Counted from the first letter of the stretch, positions 4,096 to 45,611 are shown. The stretch: 64,000 bases of DNA from a virus (IMGVR_UViG_3300048687_000113:45244-109243), one strand, 5' to 3'. Numbers and translations are program-made. The notes: generated by a model not told the origin, from the sequence alone.

Positions 4096-4180
4096 TGCTC
4101 CTCCTGGCTGGGATTTTGCGTCGCGTCGCCTGCCGGGGCGCAGGCTCCGCCGGCCCCATGTTGGGTGAAGTGCCTGCCCG

Positions 4181-4203
4181 TTGTCAGTCGTGCGTGCCAT
4201 AGT
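4181..4203 (+). promoter_or_regulatory. RecA-NDp-type (LexA-independent, DNA-damage) promoter
   Basis: TTGTCAGTC-N8-CATAGT resembles the actinobacterial tTGTCRgtg-N8-TAnnnT consensus; 24 nt before the first repeat. Confidence 0.6.
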
Positions 4204-4227
4204 GGTTGAGCCGTCGGGAAGTTGGGC

Positions 4228-4611
4228 GGTCTCCCCGCGCGAGCGGGGGTGTACCGGTTGAAAGGCACGGCCGCGCTGTTGCCTGGATACTTTCCCCGCC
4301 GACGCGGGGGTGGTCCTTCTTTGTGTTTGATTGCAGGTAGGGATCTTGATTTGACCCCGCGCATGCGGGGATGGCTCGATTTCTAAGGGCATAGCACGAT
4401 GTTCCCCGCGCAAGCGGGGATGGCCCCGCAGTTGAGAGAGCCAGTACTTGCTCCCCGCACACGCGGGGATGGTCCTGTAGTCAAGAGGGCTGGTATTTGC
4501 TCCCCGCGCACGCGGGGATGCTCCGCTTCGGCGGAGGTGGATCGAAACGGCATCTCGTGAGAGGTCCCTGAAGATCTCAGAAAACCGCTCCGCACACGCG
4601 GAGGTACGCGG
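4228..4611 (+). CRISPR. Cas-less degenerate type I-E-like CRISPR mini-array (6 clear repeats plus 2 GGAG-type repeats)
   Basis: 29-nt repeats at 4228, 4289, 4350, 4399, 4448 and 4497 with CCCCGC-N4-GCGGGG stem; spacers 32, 32, 20, 20, 20 nt; CTCCGC-N4-GCGGAG repeats at 4516 (overlapping) and 4583. Confidence 0.88.
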
Positions 4612-5503: not shown

Positions 5504-6397
5504 ATGGCCGTGACGAGTTCCGCGACGTTGTCCGCTGGTGAAGTGCCGGCCGAGGTTTCGGTGGAGGTTGTTTCCGATACGAGCGTTCGGGTCTCCTGGA
5601 CGAGTGCGGAGGACCCGCTGGGCTTTGTCGTGGCGTGGTCGGTCGCCGGCGCGGAAGCCTGGACGGAGCGGCAGGTGTCGGGGGGCGCGCGGAGCCTGGT
5701 GGCGACGGGGCTGCGGCCGGGGACGGGGTACGTGTTCCGGGTGCAGTCCGAGTCGGTCTGGAGTACGGAGGCCGGCGCGGAGACGACGGGCTCGACGCTC
5801 GGGGCGCCCACGCTGCTCGTGGGCGACATCCTGGACCGCAACGCGAGTGTGAGTGTGCTGTCCCCATTCCTGGTGAGCCAGGCGCGTGTCGTCGAGGCGC
5901 AGGTGCGGGACACCCGGACGGACAGTCCCTGGTATTCCGTCTCGGATGTGCCGTGGAATCTGGCGGCGGTGGGTCTGTATGAGACGGGGTTCGGGCTGAA
6001 GGGGCTGTCGACGGGAACCACGTATGCGGTGCGGGCCCGGGTCACGGCCGGCGAGGTGGTGTCGGAGTGGTCGCCGGAGACGCGGTTCACGACGACTGGG
6101 ACCAGGAGTGGGAAGCCGAGCCTGTCGGTGGTGGCGGACTCGGCGACGTACAGCTCGGTGAAGCTGACGTGGGGGACGTCGCTGAAGGCGACGGTGCGGA
6201 TTCACCGGTGGGTCAGGTCGACGTCGCCGGGCTCTCCGTTCCTGTCGCAGCAGGTCGGGTATTCCACGGACCTGGCGGGGACATTCACGGACTCGGGTCT
6301 GTCCCAGGGGACGGACTATTGGTACACGGTCGAGTGGGTGCGGGATTCGCGGACGATCAGTGTTTCGAATCCTGTTGCTGTACGAACGCGGGGCTAG
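5504..6397 (+). CDS. fibronectin type III repeat protein (about 3 domains)
   Basis: SVRVSW...GLRPGTGYVFRV, GLSTGTTYAVRAR, SVKLTW...SGLSQGTDYWYTV; AAGGAG RBS. Confidence 0.85.
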   Translation: MAVTSSATLSAGEVPAEVSVEVVSDTSVRVSWTSAEDPLGFVVAWSVAGAEAWTERQVSGGARSLVATGLRPGTGYVFRVQSESVWSTEAGAETTGSTLGAPTLLVGDILDRNASVSVLSPFLVSQARVVEAQVRDTRTDSPWYSVSDVPWNLAAVGLYETGFGLKGLSTGTTYAVRARVTAGEVVSEWSPETRFTTTGTRSGKPSLSVVADSATYSSVKLTWGTSLKATVRIHRWVRSTSPGSPFLSQQVGYSTDLAGTFTDSGLSQGTDYWYTVEWVRDSRTISVSNPVAVRTRG

Positions 6398-6963
6398 GGG
6401 AGGCTGGTTCGGGGCGGGTGCCGCACTGTTATTCAGGTGATGGGGATAACGGACGCGAAGCGCCTGGACTTTCACCTCGCGGATAAGGCATGTGCCCGCG
6501 TAGAAACTGTGCTGTATTCGTGAAGAAATACGGCAGACGACAGTTGCCGGTGATACCTGGTGGGGCGTATGAGTGTTCGCCAGCAATCACGAACCCAGGC
6601 CATACCCCTTACCGGGGGTGACCGTACTGCCGAGTAGTCTCGCTATTCGGGACACCATCTCCGGCATTTCGGATGCATTCACCGAGCGGCATATGCCGAG
6701 CACGCATCCACCCGGAGCACAAGGCCGCCGTCACTCATTCGAGTGACAGGCCAACAATTTTTCAATTCCGCCGTGACTGACCCCGGGGCGTGTGGGTTGA
6801 TAGTTCTGCGGTGGACACGGCGGGCCCCCGAGCCTCTTCCATTTGCTCTCGGGGGCTTGCTGTCCGCCAAGGCCGGTCCGGCACAGAGGCCGCGCAGCAA
6901 ACCCCCCCTGCCTGCGCCTGCCTCTGTGCCGGGCCCTTCCGTTTTGAAGGGAGAGAAACTGTC

Positions 6964-14564: not shown

Positions 14565-15842
14565 CTATGCGCGGTTCCGGAGCCGCTCGGCGAGGGCCTG
14601 GGCGTCGGAGGTGTCGCCGACGAGCGGCAGGCGGGCGGTGATGTTGCTCAGGCCGTCGTCGATGCGGACGGACTGCACGCCGTCGGCGCAGTCGAGGAAT
14701 TCGTTCCAGGTGGCCAGCGCGGTCTCGATGTTGCCGCGCTTGAGCTGGACCTGGCCCAGATCGGCCAGCACGATCGCGCGTGTGCGTTTGCGGTCCAGGC
14801 CGTGGATGTCGAGGGCGAGGTGCAGGTGGTCTTCGGCGGCGGCGAGGTCACCGAGGCGCGCGTGGATCATGCCGGACTCGTGGGCCCACCGGCCGGGGCT
14901 GTAGTGCGAGGCCCAGGACTGTCCGGGCCGGGCGGGGGCACGCTCGATCGCCTGCTGGGAGCCGGCCAGCATTTTCGCCGCCGTCGCCCCGTCGCCGTCG
15001 GCAGCCGCCGCGCGGGCGAAGGTGTTGCGGTAGTACGCGAGTGCTTTGAAATTGTCCAGGCGCCGGCCGCGCTGCTCGCATGCTTCCGCGATCCGCACCG
15101 CCACCGGGATGTGCCCCAGGTCGATGGCCTGGTCCGCCAGGCCGCGCAGTGCGGTGGCGGCCAGCTCGTTCTCGCCGGCTTCGGCTGCCAGCCGGTACGA
15201 GTACAGGTGGTACTTCTGGCACAGTCCGTCCAGGCCTTCGTCGCGGGCCATCCATCCGATGAGCTGGACCAGTTCGGAGGTTGCGGCGAACAGGTCGCGC
15301 CCGACCGGGTCGGTGAAGCGGCCGTTGAGCCAGCGCTGGACGTCGACCGTGAGGTAGCGGACGGCGAGGTGTCGGGCGTGCCCTCCGCCGAGTTCGGAGG
15401 CCGCGTCGCCCAGGGTCGTGGTCATGGTGCGCACGGCGGCGACTTCGCCCCTGCCGACCGCCACGGGGCCGGGGTTGCTCACGCGGCGGGTGACGGCGCC
15501 GGCATCGGGCAGGTCGAGGGCCGCCAGGCCGACTGCGGCCGAGGCGGTCACAAGGAACTGCCTTCGGTCCACGTCGCTGCCTCCCAGTCGCATCACTGCG
15601 GTCACGGTATCGACGAACTCAGGCTTATTGTCGCCGGATAAATCGATACCCAAGACACGCTCGATGAAGGGCAGCCACTCCGTGGGAATCCGGGTACCCG
15701 CTTCCCACCGGTAGACCTGCTGCCGGCCGACGAGACCGGTTCGGCCCCAGCGCATCAGCGACAGCTCGCCGGCGAGCTTGGCCTGACTGCAATGGGGCGT
15801 ACGGGCGGTGCGTGCCGCGCGGATGCGCTCTGCGATCGTCAT
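14565..15842 (-). CDS. XRE HTH plus TPR-like helical regulator (NsdA-like Streptomyces family)
   Basis: SQAKLA...QVYRWEAG.R.P; DRRQFL; LGGGHAR; LIGWMARD. Confidence 0.85.
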   Translation of the reverse strand: MTIAERIRAARTARTPHCSQAKLAGELSLMRWGRTGLVGRQQVYRWEAGTRIPTEWLPFIERVLGIDLSGDNKPEFVDTVTAVMRLGGSDVDRRQFLVTASAAVGLAALDLPDAGAVTRRVSNPGPVAVGRGEVAAVRTMTTTLGDAASELGGGHARHLAVRYLTVDVQRWLNGRFTDPVGRDLFAATSELVQLIGWMARDEGLDGLCQKYHLYSYRLAAEAGENELAATALRGLADQAIDLGHIPVAVRIAEACEQRGRRLDNFKALAYYRNTFARAAAADGDGATAAKMLAGSQQAIERAPARPGQSWASHYSPGRWAHESGMIHARLGDLAAAEDHLHLALDIHGLDRKRTRAIVLADLGQVQLKRGNIETALATWNEFLDCADGVQSVRIDDGLSNITARLPLVGDTSDAQALAERLRNRA

Positions 15843-15871
15843 GTCGGGCCGTTCTCGGTCCTGGTTCACAA

Positions 15872-20870: not shown

Positions 20871-20938
20871 CCATTAACGGGCCGGAAAACCGCGCCTTTA
20901 GCGTCCTGGTGAGACGTCTCAATCATTGGAGGCACACC

Positions 20939-21334
20939 ATGGCGAACAGCCCCCTCGCTCCGGACCCTGAATTCCAGGAGTCCAGCGACCGCTTCTACGA
21001 GACGAAGCACGCGCAGAACACGTCCCGGCGCGGCCCCCTTCGCTTCCAGGAAGGCGTCAGCACGGACACCGACATCCCGACCGAGTTCGGGACCGGCATC
21101 ATGCAGGGCTACCGCACGCCGGCCGGCCGGATGAATCACAACAGCAACGTCTTCGAAAAGAGCGCTGAGGAGACGATGCGCGAGCGCGCCCACGTCGGGA
21201 GCGCGAGCTGGCCCGAGGCGCCGACTTTCATCTCCGCAATGGCCCAGGGCGCGTCCGAGCCCGAGCAGTCCTACGCCCAGGTCGACCGGGGCGAGGGCCG
21301 CTCCCAGCGCCGGAACTACGCCCGGGTGGACTGA
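20939..21334 (+). CDS. conserved head-region hypothetical protein
   Basis: GGAGG RBS; follows ATTAAC-N20-TAGCGT. Confidence 0.75.
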   Translation: MANSPLAPDPEFQESSDRFYETKHAQNTSRRGPLRFQEGVSTDTDIPTEFGTGIMQGYRTPAGRMNHNSNVFEKSAEETMRERAHVGSASWPEAPTFISAMAQGASEPEQSYAQVDRGEGRSQRRNYARVD

Positions 21335-21337
21335 GCT

Positions 21338-22042
21338 TTGACCAATCCCGGACAGTCCACACCCTGGGGAAAGATCCCCATCCCCAGCGAGGGGAAGTCC
21401 CCGGACGTCCCCGTGGACCTGGCGGCCATCGCCGACCCGATCGACACCCTGCTCAGGAATGTCATCGGCGGGGCGACGGCTCCGACCGGGCCGCTCAGCC
21501 CCACCCTCACCGAGGCGTCCGCATCCATCGGCGGGCTGAACTCCACGCAGTCCAGCCAGCAAGCGGCCATCACCACCATGCAGGGCCAGATCGCGGCCCT
21601 GAGCGCCGCGCCCTGGGCGGTGGGCACCTCCCGAACGAGCGCGTTCTCTCTGGCCGGCAACGTGAAGACGCCGACCCTCGTGCACTCCTACCAGGTGCCG
21701 GCGTTCACCCAGCGCCGGCTCCTGATCGCCTGGGCCAACATCGCGGTCGGCTGGAAAGACAGCACGACGTCCGCCGTGCGCGCCCGCCTCCAGGTCCAGG
21801 CCGACGGCGCGAGCACCTACGTCGACCGCAACCAGCACATCCAGACCGGTGTCGAGCAGTCCCACACCCTCTTTTTCACCGAGACCGTCGAGGCCGGCAA
21901 GTCGGTGCGCGTGGGCCTGTCGATCGACGTCTACGGCGCGGCCACCTCCTCCAAAACAGTCCAGACCCAGGAGGTCGACCCCCGCATCTACCTCATCGCC
22001 CTGCCCTGGTCCGGGTCCGCCGTGTCTTCCCTCGCCGTCTGA
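21338..22042 (+). CDS. putative virion structural protein
   Basis: Beta-rich ORF between terminase and portal; TTG start. Confidence 0.65.
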   Translation: MTNPGQSTPWGKIPIPSEGKSPDVPVDLAAIADPIDTLLRNVIGGATAPTGPLSPTLTEASASIGGLNSTQSSQQAAITTMQGQIAALSAAPWAVGTSRTSAFSLAGNVKTPTLVHSYQVPAFTQRRLLIAWANIAVGWKDSTTSAVRARLQVQADGASTYVDRNQHIQTGVEQSHTLFFTETVEAGKSVRVGLSIDVYGAATSSKTVQTQEVDPRIYLIALPWSGSAVSSLAV

Positions 22043-22078
22043 CCCCACTACCCCGAGCTGCCGATTGGAGGTGATGCC

Positions 22079-23793
22079 ATGTCGATCGCCTTTGCTTCCC
22101 CCAGCATGCGAGCTGCCGCCAGTGACCTGACCATCTCGGTCAGTCCGCTCGGCCTCGTCGAGCTGGCGGACGAGGAGTTCGAATTAGCGAGGTCCACGGT
22201 CCTCGTCTGACCCGCTATTCGAACCACTGGGCCTGGTACCTCGGCTACCACTGGGCCTATAAGCGTGAGGCCGGCGAGCCCAACGTCACCATCAACTACA
22301 CCGGAGCATTGAGCCGGTACATCACCAACTTCACGTTCGGCAGAGGCGTTCACTTCCAGACCGAGAAGAAGTACGAGCACATCGTGCCCGCACTCCTGGA
22401 GCGGGTCTGGAGCGTCGACAATGACAAGAAGAACACCCTCTGGCAGATGGGCGAGAACGGTTCCGTAGCCGGGGACTGTTTCGTGAAGGTGGCCTACGAA
22501 CCCGCCTGGAGCGATACGGCTGGCAACACGCACCCCGGGCGCGTGCGCATTTTGCCGCTCAACGCTGCACAGTGCTTTCCGGAATACCATCCGCACGACC
22601 GTGATCGTTTGCTCAGGTTCAAGATCCGCTACAAATTCTGGGGCACCTCCCTAGAAGGGACGCGTGCCGTATACACGTACACGGAGATCATTACCGATGA
22701 ATACATTGAAGAATATGTAAATGATGAACTCCTCGACGCGCGAGAGAACCCCCTGGGAACCATCCCGGTGGTGCACATCCGGAACATCTCCATATCCGGC
22801 TCCCCCTGGGGCCTGTCGGACATCGCCGACCTGATCCCGCTGAATCGCGAGTACAACGAGAAGTGCACCGAGATCAGCGACATCGTGAATTATCACGCGG
22901 CGCCCGTCACGATTATCACCGGTGCGAAAGCGAGTCACCTTGAGAAGGGGGCCCGGAAAATCTGGGGCGGCCTCCCCAAGGATGCGAACGTTTTCAATCT
23001 GGAGAACGGCGTCGACCTCAACGGTCCGCTGCAATACCTGGAGCTGATCAAGCGCTCCATGCACGAGCTGACCGGCGTCCCCGAGACGGCCCTGGGCCAA
23101 GCCCAACCGATCTCGAATACGTCAGGAGTGGCTCTGGCAATTCTCTACCAGCCACTCATGTCCAGGTACTCCCTGAAGCAGACCAACTACACGGCCGGCC
23201 TGCGCCGGATCAACGAACTTGTACTGCGCACACTCTTCCTCTACGAGCCCGAGTGCCGCATCTACGACCCCAGCACCCAGGGAATTCGGGTATCCGACGA
23301 ACAGCCCCTCGTCATCGACCCGCGCGACCCCGAGGTGTACGACACCACCGTGGACTGGCCCCCGCCGCTCCCGGTGGACGTCCTGGTCAAGCTGAATGAA
23401 GTCCAAGCGAAGCTCGCCCTGGGCCTGGAGTCCAAGCGGGGAGCCCTGCGCGATCTCGGGGAGACCTTCCCCGGAGAAAAAATGCAGGAAATCTTCGACG
23501 AGCGACTCACCGAGGCCAAGGAAGACGGCGCGCTCGAATATATCAAGGCACAAATCGCCAGCACTATCTTGCGAACTACGGGATTGCCGCCGGAAGGCGT
23601 GGAAAGCCCACCCCCTGCACCGGCCGCTTCCGGCTCCAAGGAGTCCGGAAATACCGGAGCGACAAGCGCCGGCCCCTTTCCCGGAGTACCGGGAGTGGGG
23701 CAGGGCAAAGACACCGACTCGGTCCTCAGTGAACTCGTGACGCTGTCGCAGGGCACGAAATTGGCCCAGCGACGGAACCCGGAAAACGACTGA
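22079..23793 (+). CDS. portal protein (SPP1 gp6-like), reading frame interrupted at 22181-22191 (candidate translational bypass)
   Basis: GGAGGTG RBS and ATG at 22079. Frame 0 stops at TGA 22208-22210. The -1 frame from GAG 22189 runs to 23793 with NPLGTIPVVH, WGLSDI and NTSGVAL portal motifs. Confidence 0.9.
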
Positions 23794-24693: not shown

Positions 24694-24775
24694 CCGCGTC
24701 CACCCTGAAAAGTAGCCATACCGCCTCTCGTTCCCATTCATCTCGGCGGGCCCGTCACGGGATGAGAGGTACAAC

Positions 24776-25918
24776 GTGGCAAGCGGAATCACCGGTACTC
24801 CGGTTCTGTCCCCCACTCCGACCGCCTACCAGGCGGCCAACTCCAGCATGCTCACGCCGGCCATTCAGCATATCTGGAGCAAAGAAATCCTGTTTCAGGC
24901 GATGCCGGTGCTTCGCTTCGAACAATTCATGGTCAAGAAGACCGAGCTTGGTACTGCTCCCGGCCTTTCGGTGTCGTTTATGCGGTACCGCTCGCTGGAC
25001 GGAGCGCAGCAGCTCGTCGAGGGCGTCCGCATGGAAACTCATGCGCTTTCCGCCGAGCAGATCACCATTACCGTGGCGGAGCACGGCTTTGCCATTGCAG
25101 TGACGGAACTCCTGCTCAATGCGAGCTTCGACGACGTGATGGCGTCCGGCGCGCGCCTCCTCGGCCGCAACATGGCCACCTACCTGGACTCGATGTGCCG
25201 GGACACGCTGCTCGGGGCTCCGTCGGTTCTGTATGGGTATGACAAGCTCGCGTCGTGGTCGGCTGGTGCCGCGCGGACGCCGCTGTCGCCGTACGACCGT
25301 GGCATGTTTGCAGACAGCGAGGCCACGATGGCTGCAAACGGCGGCTTTCACTTCACGTCTGCGCTGGTCAAGGACGCAGTCGAGACCCTGGCGACGAAGA
25401 ACGTGCCCCGATTGGGTGAAACGTACGTTGCATTCGTACATCCTCACCAAAGCCGCCGGCTCCGCGATGATCCCGAGTTCATCGAGGTGACAAAGTATGC
25501 GGCTCCCGGCAACTTTATGCTGGGAGAAATCGGACGTCTGAACGATGTCGTCTTCATCGAGACAACTCAGGTCTTCCAGGGCAATACGAACCAGCCGGCG
25601 ACCCCGCAGCTCGGCACGAACATCGCCCAGGGCGGCGCCCAGAGCTGGGGCGGACAGCCGGCCCGCAGCGCTTCCGGATCGGCTCCGGCAATTCCTGCCG
25701 TGAACGCTCAGCCGTCGAATCCGAGCGCCCCGTCCAACCCGATCTACCGTGCGCTCGTAATTGGCGACAATGCGGCCGGCCACGCCATTTCCCTCCCTGT
25801 CGAACTAAGGGATGGGGGTGTGCTCGATTTCGGCCGCGAGCATGCGCTTGCATGGTACAGCATTTGGGGACTCGGGCTGATCACGGACTACGCCGTGGTC
25901 CAGTGCGCGACGAACTGA
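24776..25918 (+). CDS. major capsid protein (N4-gp56-like)
   Basis: WSKEILFQAMPVLRFEQF, EHGFA, YVAFVHP, GEIGRL..V.FIET, DFGREHALAWY. Confidence 0.92.
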   Translation: MASGITGTPVLSPTPTAYQAANSSMLTPAIQHIWSKEILFQAMPVLRFEQFMVKKTELGTAPGLSVSFMRYRSLDGAQQLVEGVRMETHALSAEQITITVAEHGFAIAVTELLLNASFDDVMASGARLLGRNMATYLDSMCRDTLLGAPSVLYGYDKLASWSAGAARTPLSPYDRGMFADSEATMAANGGFHFTSALVKDAVETLATKNVPRLGETYVAFVHPHQSRRLRDDPEFIEVTKYAAPGNFMLGEIGRLNDVVFIETTQVFQGNTNQPATPQLGTNIAQGGAQSWGGQPARSASGSAPAIPAVNAQPSNPSAPSNPIYRALVIGDNAAGHAISLPVELRDGGVLDFGREHALAWYSIWGLGLITDYAVVQCATN

Positions 25919-42896: not shown

Positions 42897-43988
42897 GTGG
42901 CCTACCCGAACTTCCGCCACCTGGCAGCCGACAAGATCCTCGGCATCGACTACGACATCAAGAACCGCTACGGGTCGGGCACCTACCTGCTGCATGCCGC
43001 GATCCACGGCGGCGGCATCGAGCCGCCCACCTCCCAGCTCGCGGCCTACTGCGCCGGCGACGGCGCCTGGTACTCCTTCGAGGCCCTCAACGACCTCACC
43101 GCCCAGACCGTCAAACTGCCGGCCGTAGCCTTCGACGAGCCGTTCTGCGTCGTGAACGCCGGCAACTCCAGCCGGACCGTGGTGTGGCACGGCGTGGACG
43201 ACCAGCGCGAGGCCGAGCAGGTCACGTACATCAGCGGCGCCGACTCCGTGCTGGCCTCGCTGATCGTCCAGGAACTCGTCGCCGCCGGCTTCCAGACCGA
43301 CCGCGCCCCGGTCACGTTCGAGGGCGAGACCCCGCAGAACATCTGCAACCGCAACAAGGCTCGGGCAGGTGTCCAGCTCGACCTCTCCTACACCCTGCGC
43401 AAGTCGTTCTACGCGAGCGGGGACCTCTCCACGGCCGCCCTCTCCCAGCCCGACAACCGGCTGCCGGCCTTCTTCGCCTACGGCGACGCCATCCGCCGGG
43501 CCTGCGCCCAAGTCCCCCTGGCGAGCGACACCGACGACGTCCCGCCGGTCATCACCCAGCCGCGCACGCCCGCCAGCCAGGACGTCAGCACCGCCATGCG
43601 CACCCCCTTCGCCATCGACCACTCCGGCGGTGTCTCGGCCACCACCGACGAGCGCGAGCAGCTCGTGGACCGGGTGCACGCCCTGGTGGGCACGCTGCCC
43701 GGTGAGCGCGTCATGCGCGCCACCTACGGTGTGCCGACCTCGGCCTCCCTGTTCGCGATCAACCCGGAGATCGCCAATGATCAGTTGCAGCGGGCCGTCA
43801 TCGACGCCGTCGCGCAGTTCGAGCCGTCCGCCGTGGTCTCCGCCATCGTCGCCGACGTGAACGAGAACCTGGGCTCGGTCAACGTCAACGTCCAGGTGAG
43901 CCGCGCCGACGTGCCCGGCGCCGAGCGCGACAACACGCGGTCGGTCGGCGTCCTGGTGGGCGGCACCGTCATTTCCACTCCGGAGTAA
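42897..43988 (+). CDS. poly-gamma-glutamate hydrolase (PghP-like) fused to gp25/gpW baseplate wedge domain
   Basis: AIHGGGIE.PTS, YSFEAL, FDEP, WHG, NICNR, GVQLDL; C-terminal PFAID...TLPGERVMRATYG...AVAQFEP. Confidence 0.85.
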   Translation: MAYPNFRHLAADKILGIDYDIKNRYGSGTYLLHAAIHGGGIEPPTSQLAAYCAGDGAWYSFEALNDLTAQTVKLPAVAFDEPFCVVNAGNSSRTVVWHGVDDQREAEQVTYISGADSVLASLIVQELVAAGFQTDRAPVTFEGETPQNICNRNKARAGVQLDLSYTLRKSFYASGDLSTAALSQPDNRLPAFFAYGDAIRRACAQVPLASDTDDVPPVITQPRTPASQDVSTAMRTPFAIDHSGGVSATTDEREQLVDRVHALVGTLPGERVMRATYGVPTSASLFAINPEIANDQLQRAVIDAVAQFEPSAVVSAIVADVNENLGSVNVNVQVSRADVPGAERDNTRSVGVLVGGTVISTPE

Positions 43989-44078: not shown

Positions 44079-45611
44079 GTGTGTGCCGTGGCAGTCGACA
44101 GCGGGTCCGTTGCGCAGATCGACTACACCTCCCGCGATTTCACGGGCTATCGCGACTCGCTGCTCCAGTACGCAACGCAGATCCTGCCGGAATGGACGAG
44201 CCGCTCACCCGCCGATTTCGGCGTGGTGATGGTGGAACTTTTCTCCTACGTCGGCGACATCATCAGCTTCTATCAGGACAGGATCGCCGACGAATCCTTC
44301 CTCGCCACCGCCACCCAGCGCTCCAGCGTGGTGGCCATCTCCCAGCAGCTCGGATACCAGCCGCACCCCGCGATCCCCGCGACCGGACAGGTGGCCTTCT
44401 CGCCCGCTCCCGGCCTGGTCTCCCCGGTCACGCTCGACGCCGGCACCCAGGTGATCACGGAATACCTACCGAGCCTGGACCGGCCCATCGTCTACGAGCT
44501 GACCTCTCCCGTCGTCGTGCCGGCCTACACCACTCCCGTGCCGCAGGTCGTCGGTCTGGTCGCCGAGGGGGCCACCCAGGGCGACCGCAGTCTGGTGCTG
44601 TACCCCTCGACGTCGGGTGAGGCCGGCTCCACGGTCCGCGTCGAGGACATCGGCACCTCGGACGGCACCAAGTCGCAGACCTTCGCCCTGGCCCAGTCCC
44701 AGGCGCTGCTCGACACGGTGCGCATCTTCCTCGATGACGGGGTGGGCGGCACCGAGTGGACACGAGTCTCCGACTTCCTCCTGGTGCGCGACAGCGACCT
44801 CGTTTTCACCGCCGAGACCGACGACCAGGGCGTCACTCACGTGACGTTCGGCGACGGGACCAACGGAGCGCTGCCGGCCACCGGCATCAAGCTCACGGCG
44901 GCATACCGGACCGGGGGCGGCTCGTACGGCAACATCCCGCAGGGTTCGATCATCGATCTCGCCGATGCGCTGCCCGGCGTCGTGGTGGCCGGCTCCGCCC
45001 CGATGGCCGGCGGCGCGGACGAGGAGCCGACCGACCAGGTCCGGGAGAACGCCCCGCGCTTGTTCCGCACGCAGGGCCGGGCGGTCTCCGCCCAGGACTA
45101 CGCGGACCTGGCCCTGGCCGTGCCCGGCATCGCCGACGCCCGTGCCGTGGTCCGCTCGTCCAGCGCCGTGACCATCTATGTCGTCGGCCCGAACAACATC
45201 CTCCCGAGCGAAGGCCAGAGAGACTCCGTCGCCCAGTACGTGCAGGACCGCGCCCTGTCGGGGGTCGTGGTCAACGTGGTCAACGGCTCGCTGATCCCGG
45301 TGAACATCGGCTCCAGCACCGCGCCCGTGCTCCTGTCGGTACTGCCGCGCTATCGCCGCGACACGGTGAAGCTCGCGGTGCAGCAGGCCGTTCAGAAGGT
45401 CTTCACGCCTCCCGAGACCACGCTTTCCTCCCGTATCTCGATTTCGCACCTCTACAAGGCCATTCAGCAGGTCGCGGGCGTCGACTGGGCCGTCATTCAG
45501 CTCATGGCCCGCTCCGATCTCCCGCAGTCCGGCACCGCCGATGTCGTCTGCCGCGACAACGAAATCCCGATCGTCGGCAACGTCGTGATCACCGCCAGCG
45601 GCGGAGTATAG
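44079..45611 (+). CDS. baseplate J / gp6-like wedge protein
   Basis: IDYTSRDF, ADFGVV.VELFSY.GD, FGDGTNG, GGADEE, RAVSAQDY. Confidence 0.92.
   Translation: MCAVAVDSGSVAQIDYTSRDFTGYRDSLLQYATQILPEWTSRSPADFGVVMVELFSYVGDIISFYQDRIADESFLATATQRSSVVAISQQLGYQPHPAIPATGQVAFSPAPGLVSPVTLDAGTQVITEYLPSLDRPIVYELTSPVVVPAYTTPVPQVVGLVAEGATQGDRSLVLYPSTSGEAGSTVRVEDIGTSDGTKSQTFALAQSQALLDTVRIFLDDGVGGTEWTRVSDFLLVRDSDLVFTAETDDQGVTHVTFGDGTNGALPATGIKLTAAYRTGGGSYGNIPQGSIIDLADALPGVVVAGSAPMAGGADEEPTDQVRENAPRLFRTQGRAVSAQDYADLALAVPGIADARAVVRSSSAVTIYVVGPNNILPSEGQRDSVAQYVQDRALSGVVVNVVNGSLIPVNIGSSTAPVLLSVLPRYRRDTVKLAVQQAVQKVFTPPETTLSSRISISHLYKAIQQVAGVDWAVIQLMARSDLPQSGTADVVCRDNEIPIVGNVVITASGGV

Follow-up and report, generated by a model that had tools for sequence, protein, structure and literature searches.

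In the window analysed here, a stretch of 64,000 nt (positions 45244–109243 of the virus record IMGVR_UViG_3300048687_000113), the portal gene of a 109-kb Streptomyces-type phage is interrupted by 8 additional bases, the first three of which are TTA. Comparison with related genes gives good support to the view that the gene carries a programmed translational bypass, or hop, cassette, GAA-TTAGC-GAG, which probably allows ribosomes to cross the break and to produce a portal protein of normal length.

All features of the gene lie on the plus strand. Translation starts at ATG 22079, 4 nt downstream of the ribosome-binding site GGAGGTGA (22067–22074), and a first segment of 35 codons (22079–22183) is read in frame 0 up to GAA (Glu35, 22181–22183), the putative take-off codon that would occupy the P site during a stall. 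An internal Shine-Dalgarno-like GAGGAG (22172–22177) lies 3 nt 5′ of this codon. The coding gap TTAGC (22184–22188), which is missing from uninterrupted homologues, opens with the zero-frame A-site codon TTA (22184–22186) and is followed by the presumed landing codon GAG (22189–22191), read according to wobble rules by the same tRNA-Glu(UUC) as GAA. The second segment (22192–23793), 533 codons and a stop, is in the -1 frame. If TTA is decoded, frame 0 (...GAC GAG GAG TTC GAA TTA GCG AGG...) runs into the stop codon TGA (22208–22210) 8 codons past the take-off codon, giving a peptide of 43 amino acids (aa). The open stretch of the -1 frame spans 22126–23793, with no ATG, GTG or TTG before 22309. 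A first-pass annotation of the window had described a portal gene split in this way, with a strong ribosome-binding site before the ATG and GAGGAG just 5′ of the take-off codon; re-reading reproduced ATG 22079, GAA 22181, TTA 22184 and TGA 22208 exactly and found both elements in place.

The second segment contains the SPP1 Gp6-like portal domain PF05133 (residues 7–439, E 7.2e-23, 81.6 bits against a cut-off of 25.5) and is 92–94 % identical to its relatives, while 34 of the 35 residues of the first are the same as in the uninterrupted homologue P0002. Together, 35 and 533 codons encode 568 aa, which is also the length of P0002 and P0004–P0006, the closest full-length homologues among the matches listed (reading ...LGLVELADEEFEVHGPRL...); the gene of the window therefore contains exactly 8 extra bases. 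A search of a protein collection returned thousands of relatives, and the counts that follow come from the best 58 matches listed. More than 40 of these start M-S-I-A-F... and then read ...SPLGLVELADEEFEVHGPRL... without a break across the junction (...DEEFEVHGPRL...). The 8-nt insert, the 568-aa hop product and the reading DEEFE-VHGPRL, which the first-pass annotation had given for related portals, are thus all borne out. A hop from GAA to GAG is the sole event that would yield the conserved protein with cognate re-pairing. Several relatives have been given N-terminally short portals by the NCBI annotation and by other gene callers; the short database entries are P0003, P0007, P0008, P0011, P0013 and P0044.

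The evidence that carries this interpretation comes from the portal region of 13 loci from bacterial genomes and 59 from IMG/VR, in which independent TTA inserts flanked by matched codons, the signature that the first-pass annotation had suggested looking for, proved to be abundant. In total, 38 inserts of 23 sequence types were found at 10 codon positions in 23 loci, the window included (two pairs among these loci represent the same contig twice). The positions correspond to residues 29, 32, 33, 35, 38, 40, 44, 51, 55 and 174 of the full-length protein. Insert lengths are 4, 5, 6, 7, 8, 10, 16, 18 or 25 nt and the gaps range from 1 to 22 nt across the types. In 20 of the 23 types the insert opens, in the zero frame, with TTA; two types have TGA there and one has the rare AGA. 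Sixteen types have a landing codon synonymous with the take-off codon, and in the other seven the two codons agree at two of three bases. Examples are GAG-TTACC-GAG, GAA-TTAT-GAA, CTT-TTAC-CTC, CAC-TTAC-CAC, TAT-T-TAC and CGA-TTAC-CGC, as well as the in-frame CGA-TTA-CGY. When the gap and the landing codon are deleted in silico, each of the 23 loci yields a single frame of 542–548 codons that encodes the conserved protein, and no lesion remains.

Chance accounts poorly for these regularities: TTA in 20 of 23 types has a binomial tail of about 3e-44, and a synonymous landing codon in 16 of 23 one of about 9e-16. Moreover, the synonymous pairs (GAA to GAG or GAA, CTT to CTC, CGA to CGC or CGT, TAC to TAT and the reverse, CAC to CAC) are all such that one tRNA can read both members, tRNAs being assigned to codons by the established wobble rules. 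The pair GAG to GAA, a direction that these rules forbid, does not occur among the 23 types. Re-pairing of a peptidyl-tRNA held in the P site predicts such one-tRNA codon pairs, whereas neither a transposon footprint nor a simple frameshift would lead one to expect them.

Inserts appear to come and go readily. A single gene can contain up to three of them, and the same insert type is found in portals that differ by about 20 % at the protein level. On the portal tree, at least one insert is present in 17 of the 19 rows of the clade that includes prophages of Streptomyces, Kitasatospora and Saccharothrix, but close sisters differ in the inserts they carry and the type GAG-TTACC-GAG occurs in three subclades, which implies that inserts turn over, or are exchanged by recombination, quickly compared with changes in the protein. 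Relatives were found integrated in the genomes of Streptomyces, Kitasatospora, Saccharothrix and Nonomuraea. All relatives tested encode tyrosine integrases whether or not they have cassettes, and a link between cassettes and a temperate lifestyle was therefore dropped as non-discriminating. The cultured relatives GiJojo, pSt2308, Alone3, LuckySocke and BRock, with about 61 % identity, have uninterrupted portals, and cassettes are absent from the cultured phages of the collection. A metagenome scan for further loci returned only 10, mostly duplicates, and a pattern scan for inserts at the window's position retrieved just three records, all of them already in the set.

Three further observations concern the same genes. 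Ordinary in-frame TTA codons are found exactly at cassette positions in two relatives (CGT-TTA-CTG at residue 174, L062:3409; TAC-TTA-GGC at residue 51, L066:1472), and cassettes may evolve from such plain leucine codons. The two TGA-type cassettes, TAT-T-GAC (L063 near 3000), which is one base away from TAT-T-TAC, and GGT-TG-AGC (L062 near 2990), are either stop-codon hops or decaying copies. Finally, the portal of a distant relative is interrupted by an insertion of about 860 nt (L070:2136–3001) next to which the protein match is partly duplicated (query residues 107–131); this insertion has no Rfam match and no open reading frame (ORF) of more than 90 aa.

The insert is unlikely to be an error of assembly. 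At the level of contigs, an independently built Logan contig from the probable source run is identical to the window over 21900–22500, and in X3, another isolate (depth 110), this site is occupied by an 8-nt insert with two substitutions (GAA-TTACC-GAC); an assembly artefact was rejected on these grounds. Logan contigs from other runs add two further insert types at the window's position and one insert-free allele. Across 16 insert-bearing genes, the N-terminal 28 codons (from Met1 to the Glu of SPLGLVE) are under purifying selection, the proportions of synonymous (pS) and nonsynonymous (pN) differences being 0.50 and 0.063 (pN/pS 0.12). In the remainder of the gene the ratio of nonsynonymous to synonymous substitution rates (dN/dS) is 0.05–0.13, with dS near saturation at about 0.9, and is equal for genes with and without inserts. 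Judged by this comparison, insert-bearing portals are to be regarded as working genes.

The mechanism that we envisage is the following. After 35 codons from ATG 22079, a ribosome with peptidyl-tRNA-Glu on GAA in its P site would meet TTA in the A site, a codon that in Streptomyces is read solely by the scarce and developmentally regulated bldA tRNA, and would pause. During the pause the peptidyl-tRNA would unpair, the mRNA slide by 8 nt and the tRNA re-pair with GAG 22189–22191, so that decoding would restart at GTC 22192 and give the normal 568-aa portal. Ribosomes that decode TTA would instead terminate at TGA 22208 after 43 aa. GAGGAG 3 nt upstream of the take-off codon and a local hairpin may assist the hop. 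The portal is needed at 12 copies per virion, and at such a low copy number even a low-efficiency hop could suffice. Taken one step beyond the hop, the yield might be expected to fall as the bldA tRNA rises, an inverted bldA switch that would confine virion assembly to young vegetative hyphae.

The GAGGAG element is present in all four loci with an insert at this position (the window and IMG/VR loci) and is absent from all seven members of the clade that have no insert at either of the two Glu sites; it may have a stimulatory function. The predicted hairpin (22177–22224; 5′ arm 22177–22189, 3′ arm 22213–22224) has a minimum free energy of -28.3 kcal/mol and a z-score of -2.74, with one of 200 shuffled sequences as stable, and its 5′ arm includes GAA and TTAGC in full as well as the first base of the landing codon. 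It may play a part in the hop, but its role is uncertain as it is not conserved across other insert types. No RNA structure common to all cassettes was found (z-scores from mononucleotide shuffling between -2.2 and +1.2), and no Rfam family matched the window. Hairpins that start right after the take-off codon are predicted in the relatives L011, L018 and L003. In two relatives with longer gaps, a hairpin CCCC-TC-GGGG directly follows TTA (L011:3421–3445) and a hairpin GAGTTAC-ATCC-GTAACTC encloses both the take-off codon and TTA (L062:2955–2975).

Several points weigh against the interpretation as a programmed hop. The hop itself is deduced from sequence comparison. The exact cassette of the window, TTAGC followed by GAG, is unique in the set and its own age can consequently not be dated, and neither the Shine-Dalgarno-like element nor an RNA structure is common to all insert types. 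Seven types land on a codon with only two of three bases matching, which can mean loose re-pairing or decaying copies; GAC, GAT, GGG, TAG and AGC are natural landing codons of this kind. At residues 40 and 174 the next residue is Leu; here TTA might be decoded and tRNA-Leu(UAA) might be the tRNA that hops, which would reverse the bldA logic. In six loci the in-frame insert CGA-TTA-CGY keeps the frame without any hop. In addition, we infer the host of this metagenomic phage solely from the integration of its relatives in actinobacterial genomes.

The closest known parallel is the terminase gene of phage phiHau3, for which UUA-triggered bypassing of two 10-nt blocks was proposed by Smith et al. 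2013, as summarised in PMC10732093, and partly tested by Antonov et al. 2023 (PMC10732093). Three of 100 terminase genes are affected, those of phiHau3 (g6/g7/g8), the StrepC.1 prophage and an S. catenulae prophage, and the phiHau3 junction peptide was detected by mass spectrometry, in E. coli and with a UAA variant; the authors call the idea of UUA bypassing largely overlooked (PMC10732093). The first-pass annotation had cited this precedent. It is real, and the phiHau3 inserts, when re-read directly (GGC-TTACTCC-GGT and TCT-TTAACGG-TCC), have the same design as the portal cassettes: a short insert missing from homologues, with UUA as the first zero-frame codon, breaks the frame shortly before a zero-frame stop, and the take-off and landing codons are synonymous (GAA and GAG in the window, readable by one tRNA under the wobble rules). 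Both cases concern a low-copy virion-assembly gene, with a proposed logic in which the product would be made only when the bldA tRNA is limiting, and the inverted bldA switch is accordingly not a new idea but the Smith 2013/Antonov 2023 model for terminase. The differences are that the gene here is a portal, in an unrelated 109-kb contractile-tailed lineage, and that the gap is 7 nt in phiHau3 but 5 nt in the window and 1–22 nt in its portal relatives. The portal series is also larger (23 types at 10 positions versus three of 100 terminase genes) and adds in-frame inserts, landing codons with two of three bases matching and up to three inserts per gene. Possible UUA-linked bypassing has also been suggested in 2025 for the primase gene of mycobacteriophage Bxb1 (PMC12646305).

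Bypassing of T4 gene 60 resembles the proposed portal hop in that the peptidyl-tRNA leaves its codon when the A-site codon is slow or cannot be decoded, and then pairs again with a matching codon further downstream, and take-off hairpins are predicted in some of the portal relatives (GAGUUAC-AUCC-GUAACUC in L062; also L011, L018 and L003). However, the gap there is 50 nt as opposed to 5 nt and the A-site codon is UAG rather than a rare sense codon; moreover, a take-off stem-loop, a nascent-peptide signal and a linked homing endonuclease belong to the gene 60 type, whereas no stem-loop is conserved among the portal genes and no endonuclease domain was found in the ORFs tested beside them, and we do not class the cassettes as elements of the gene 60 type. 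In the +1 frameshift of prfB, which encodes RF2, a Shine-Dalgarno-like element precedes the P-site codon by 3 nt, and slow decoding of the A-site codon ties the yield to the level of its decoder. The geometry of the window, GAGGAG-TTC-GAA-TTA, is similar, but in prfB the tRNA re-pairs on the overlapping +1 codon whereas here it would do so at a non-overlapping site 8 nt downstream. Hopping at hungry or stop codons in E. coli (Weiss et al. 1987; Gallant and Lindsley; Kane et al. 1992; refs 47–52 in PMC10732093) likewise involves a peptidyl-tRNA that slides a few nucleotides to a matching codon when the A-site tRNA is starved, and includes in-frame hops of two codons; it consists of low-level laboratory or expression artefacts, in contrast to what would be a selected and conserved arrangement in an essential gene. 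No description of portal-gene cassettes of this kind was found in the literature searched.

A first alternative accepts that the hop is real but gives it another purpose. On the model of the T4 gene 60 gap and MobA, the inserts would disrupt the most conserved portal sequence, a target for homing endonucleases or other nucleases made by competing phages, the hop would be a 'savior' recoding event by which the gene stays usable, and TTA would merely be the slowest codon available. We think this rather doubtful. Four of the ten positions and 12 of the 23 types fall within LVELADEEFE, which of all 10-codon windows of the gene is the most conserved at the nucleotide level (tail 2e-5), and the residue-174 site directly follows the sixth-ranked conserved window, but conservation at third codon positions in this hot spot is not unusual. 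Insert turnover that outpaces protein divergence, with sisters carrying different inserts, would be expected of such a conflict, and mobile elements do invade these structural genes, given that the neighbouring capsid gene of relatives contains up to three group I introns. The nuclease itself is harder to place. An HNH_3 endonuclease gene is present in four of four records checked; however, the only one in this genome lies about 54 kb from the portal. HNH, GIY-YIG and LAGLIDADG domains are absent from 10 extra ORFs beside the portal in eight relatives, and the window's two ORFs between terminase and portal have no Pfam match and only one match to a family of unknown function in PHROGs. Among five complete records, HNH (PF01844) and GIY-YIG are absent and four encode one HNH_3 gene each. 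Nuclease evasion also leaves unexplained why TTA is found in preference to a stop codon in 20 of 23 types.

A second alternative, which we consider improbable, replaces the hop by a -1 or +2 frameshift somewhere within the overlap of the two frames (22126–22207), with one to a few extra or different residues in the product. Taken by itself, the sequence of the window is compatible with this, and a hungry A-site codon together with an upstream Shine-Dalgarno-like element is known to stimulate frameshifting as well, as in prfB. For phiHau3, +1 frameshifting could initially not be excluded by Antonov et al. (PMC10732093). Against a frameshift, the overlap contains no slippery heptamer and a tRNA-Glu on GAA finds no cognate partner for -1 or +2 re-pairing, and the altered residues would fall inside the most conserved stretch of the protein. 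Furthermore, insert lengths from 4 to 25 nt would need different shifts while a single hop rule fits all of them, and the matched flanking codons would have no role in a simple shift.

That the insert is a plain inactivating mutation, in a defective phage or decaying prophage that makes no portal, is in our opinion very improbable. It would fit the presence of the exact TTAGC and GAG insert in this record alone within the set and the short N-termini annotated in several relatives by NCBI and other gene callers. Yet this is a complete genome with a circular assembly, neither the portal nor the other late genes contain a second lesion, and a random 8-nt insert would rarely be expected to supply both an in-frame TTA and a synonymous landing codon. 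Five other insert types occur at exactly the same codon in relatives (three IMG/VR loci and two Logan contigs), and in insert-bearing genes, taken together, strong purifying selection acts on the sequence both before and after the break. The fallback offered in the first-pass annotation, a CGA-ATTAG-CGA footprint in a defective prophage, fails on the same selection and on repeats that vary between 2 and 4 nt and are often only synonymous; more generally, a transposon footprint or target-site duplication was rejected, with repeats of 2–4 nt around cores of 2–22 nt, many of them synonymous and not identical. Least credible is a portal that lacks its first 35 residues and starts at the non-canonical ATT 22183, the 43-codon upstream frame being a separate leader: GAGGAG is indeed followed after 5 nt by ATT in the portal frame, but initiation at ATT is very uncommon, purifying selection acts on the N-terminal 28 codons of insert-bearing genes, insert-free genes have these codons fused in frame, and the other nine insert positions offer no comparable start.

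If the portal cassette works as a programmed hop, it would extend to a new gene the published but thinly documented phenomenon of UUA-led translational bypassing, the prior basis of which is three terminase genes and partial experiments in E. coli (PMC10732093). Dozens of independently built cassettes in a second essential gene would be strong comparative evidence that such hops are real and selected, and the portal series yields testable rules in the form of the take-off and landing pairs that occur, gaps of 1–22 nt and tolerance of landing codons with two of three bases matching. Lysogens with such portals that can be cultivated include Streptomyces sp. AD2-2 and S. mangrovi CGMCC 4.7117, and Streptomyces sp. 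HMX87 is a further lysogen with a portal of this kind. There is also a consequence for annotation, as these portals are called truncated or split and phages of this kind may be mis-scored as defective. Should the dependence on bldA prove true, this would be a clear case of a virus that senses the developmental state of its host through one tRNA. In a wider and more speculative scheme, which we hold to be unlikely as a whole, Streptomyces-type ribosomes may follow a simple, evolvable hop grammar in which any codon is followed by UUA, then by a gap of at most about 22 nt and finally by a landing codon matching in at least two of three bases; stacked cassettes would form a multiplicative assembly gate tuned to the charging of one host tRNA, and their rapid turnover within the gene's most conserved stretch, beside capsid genes invaded by introns, would reflect an arms race with nucleases of competing phages, the cassettes being both a developmental sensor and an immunity mark.

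The TTA codon is rare in this phage. According to rough codon-model gene calls, the window contains four in-frame TTA in about 18,800 called codons, all in early or regulatory genes, and TTA 22184 of the portal is the only one in the late module. As an ordinary codon, TTA is nearly absent across all portal homologues. The four ordinary in-frame TTA of the window are at 15641 (ORF 14565–15869, minus strand), 3671, 5493 and 3078. One of them is codon 77 in the gene for a 434-aa protein whose Pfam matches to tetratricopeptide repeats and a helix-turn-helix motif are weak and below threshold; this protein could be a conventional bldA-dependent regulator that opposes the portal hop. The 109-kb genome contains no tRNA genes. 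No other hop cassette was found in it, the late genes having neither an in-frame TTA nor a TTA at a frame junction; an in-frame TAA-TTA at 43986 was considered and turned out to be an ordinary gene boundary.

The source record comprises 109,243 bases and is rated 100 % complete in IMG/VR. An exact 19-nt direct repeat at its ends (C1:1–19 and 109225–109243), with a reading frame that continues over the junction, shows a circular assembly although IMG/VR labels the record 'linear'. The late module is otherwise intact and densely packed, and the genome encodes an integrase adjoining the terminase, a scaffold protein, a major head protein and a tail sheath; the latter makes the label 'myovirus', given in the first-pass annotation, a reasonable one. 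The major capsid gene of the window (24770–25918) has no intron, while group I introns without an ORF (Rfam RF00028, 62–72 bits) are present in that of relatives (L005:5625–5866 and 6171–6423, L008:6334–6584, L011:5622–5873, L017:2882–3139 and 4114–4384, and L036:4623–4868), where gaps of about 285 nt in tblastn alignments point to as many as three introns per gene. Finally, about 90 nt of non-coding sequence separate the terminase stop codon from the ATG of the next gene (20871–20960); this spacer is conserved among relatives, with the core ...CCTTTAGCGTCCTGGTGAGACGTCTCAAT..., and may serve as a late promoter, as a terminator or as a regulatory RNA.

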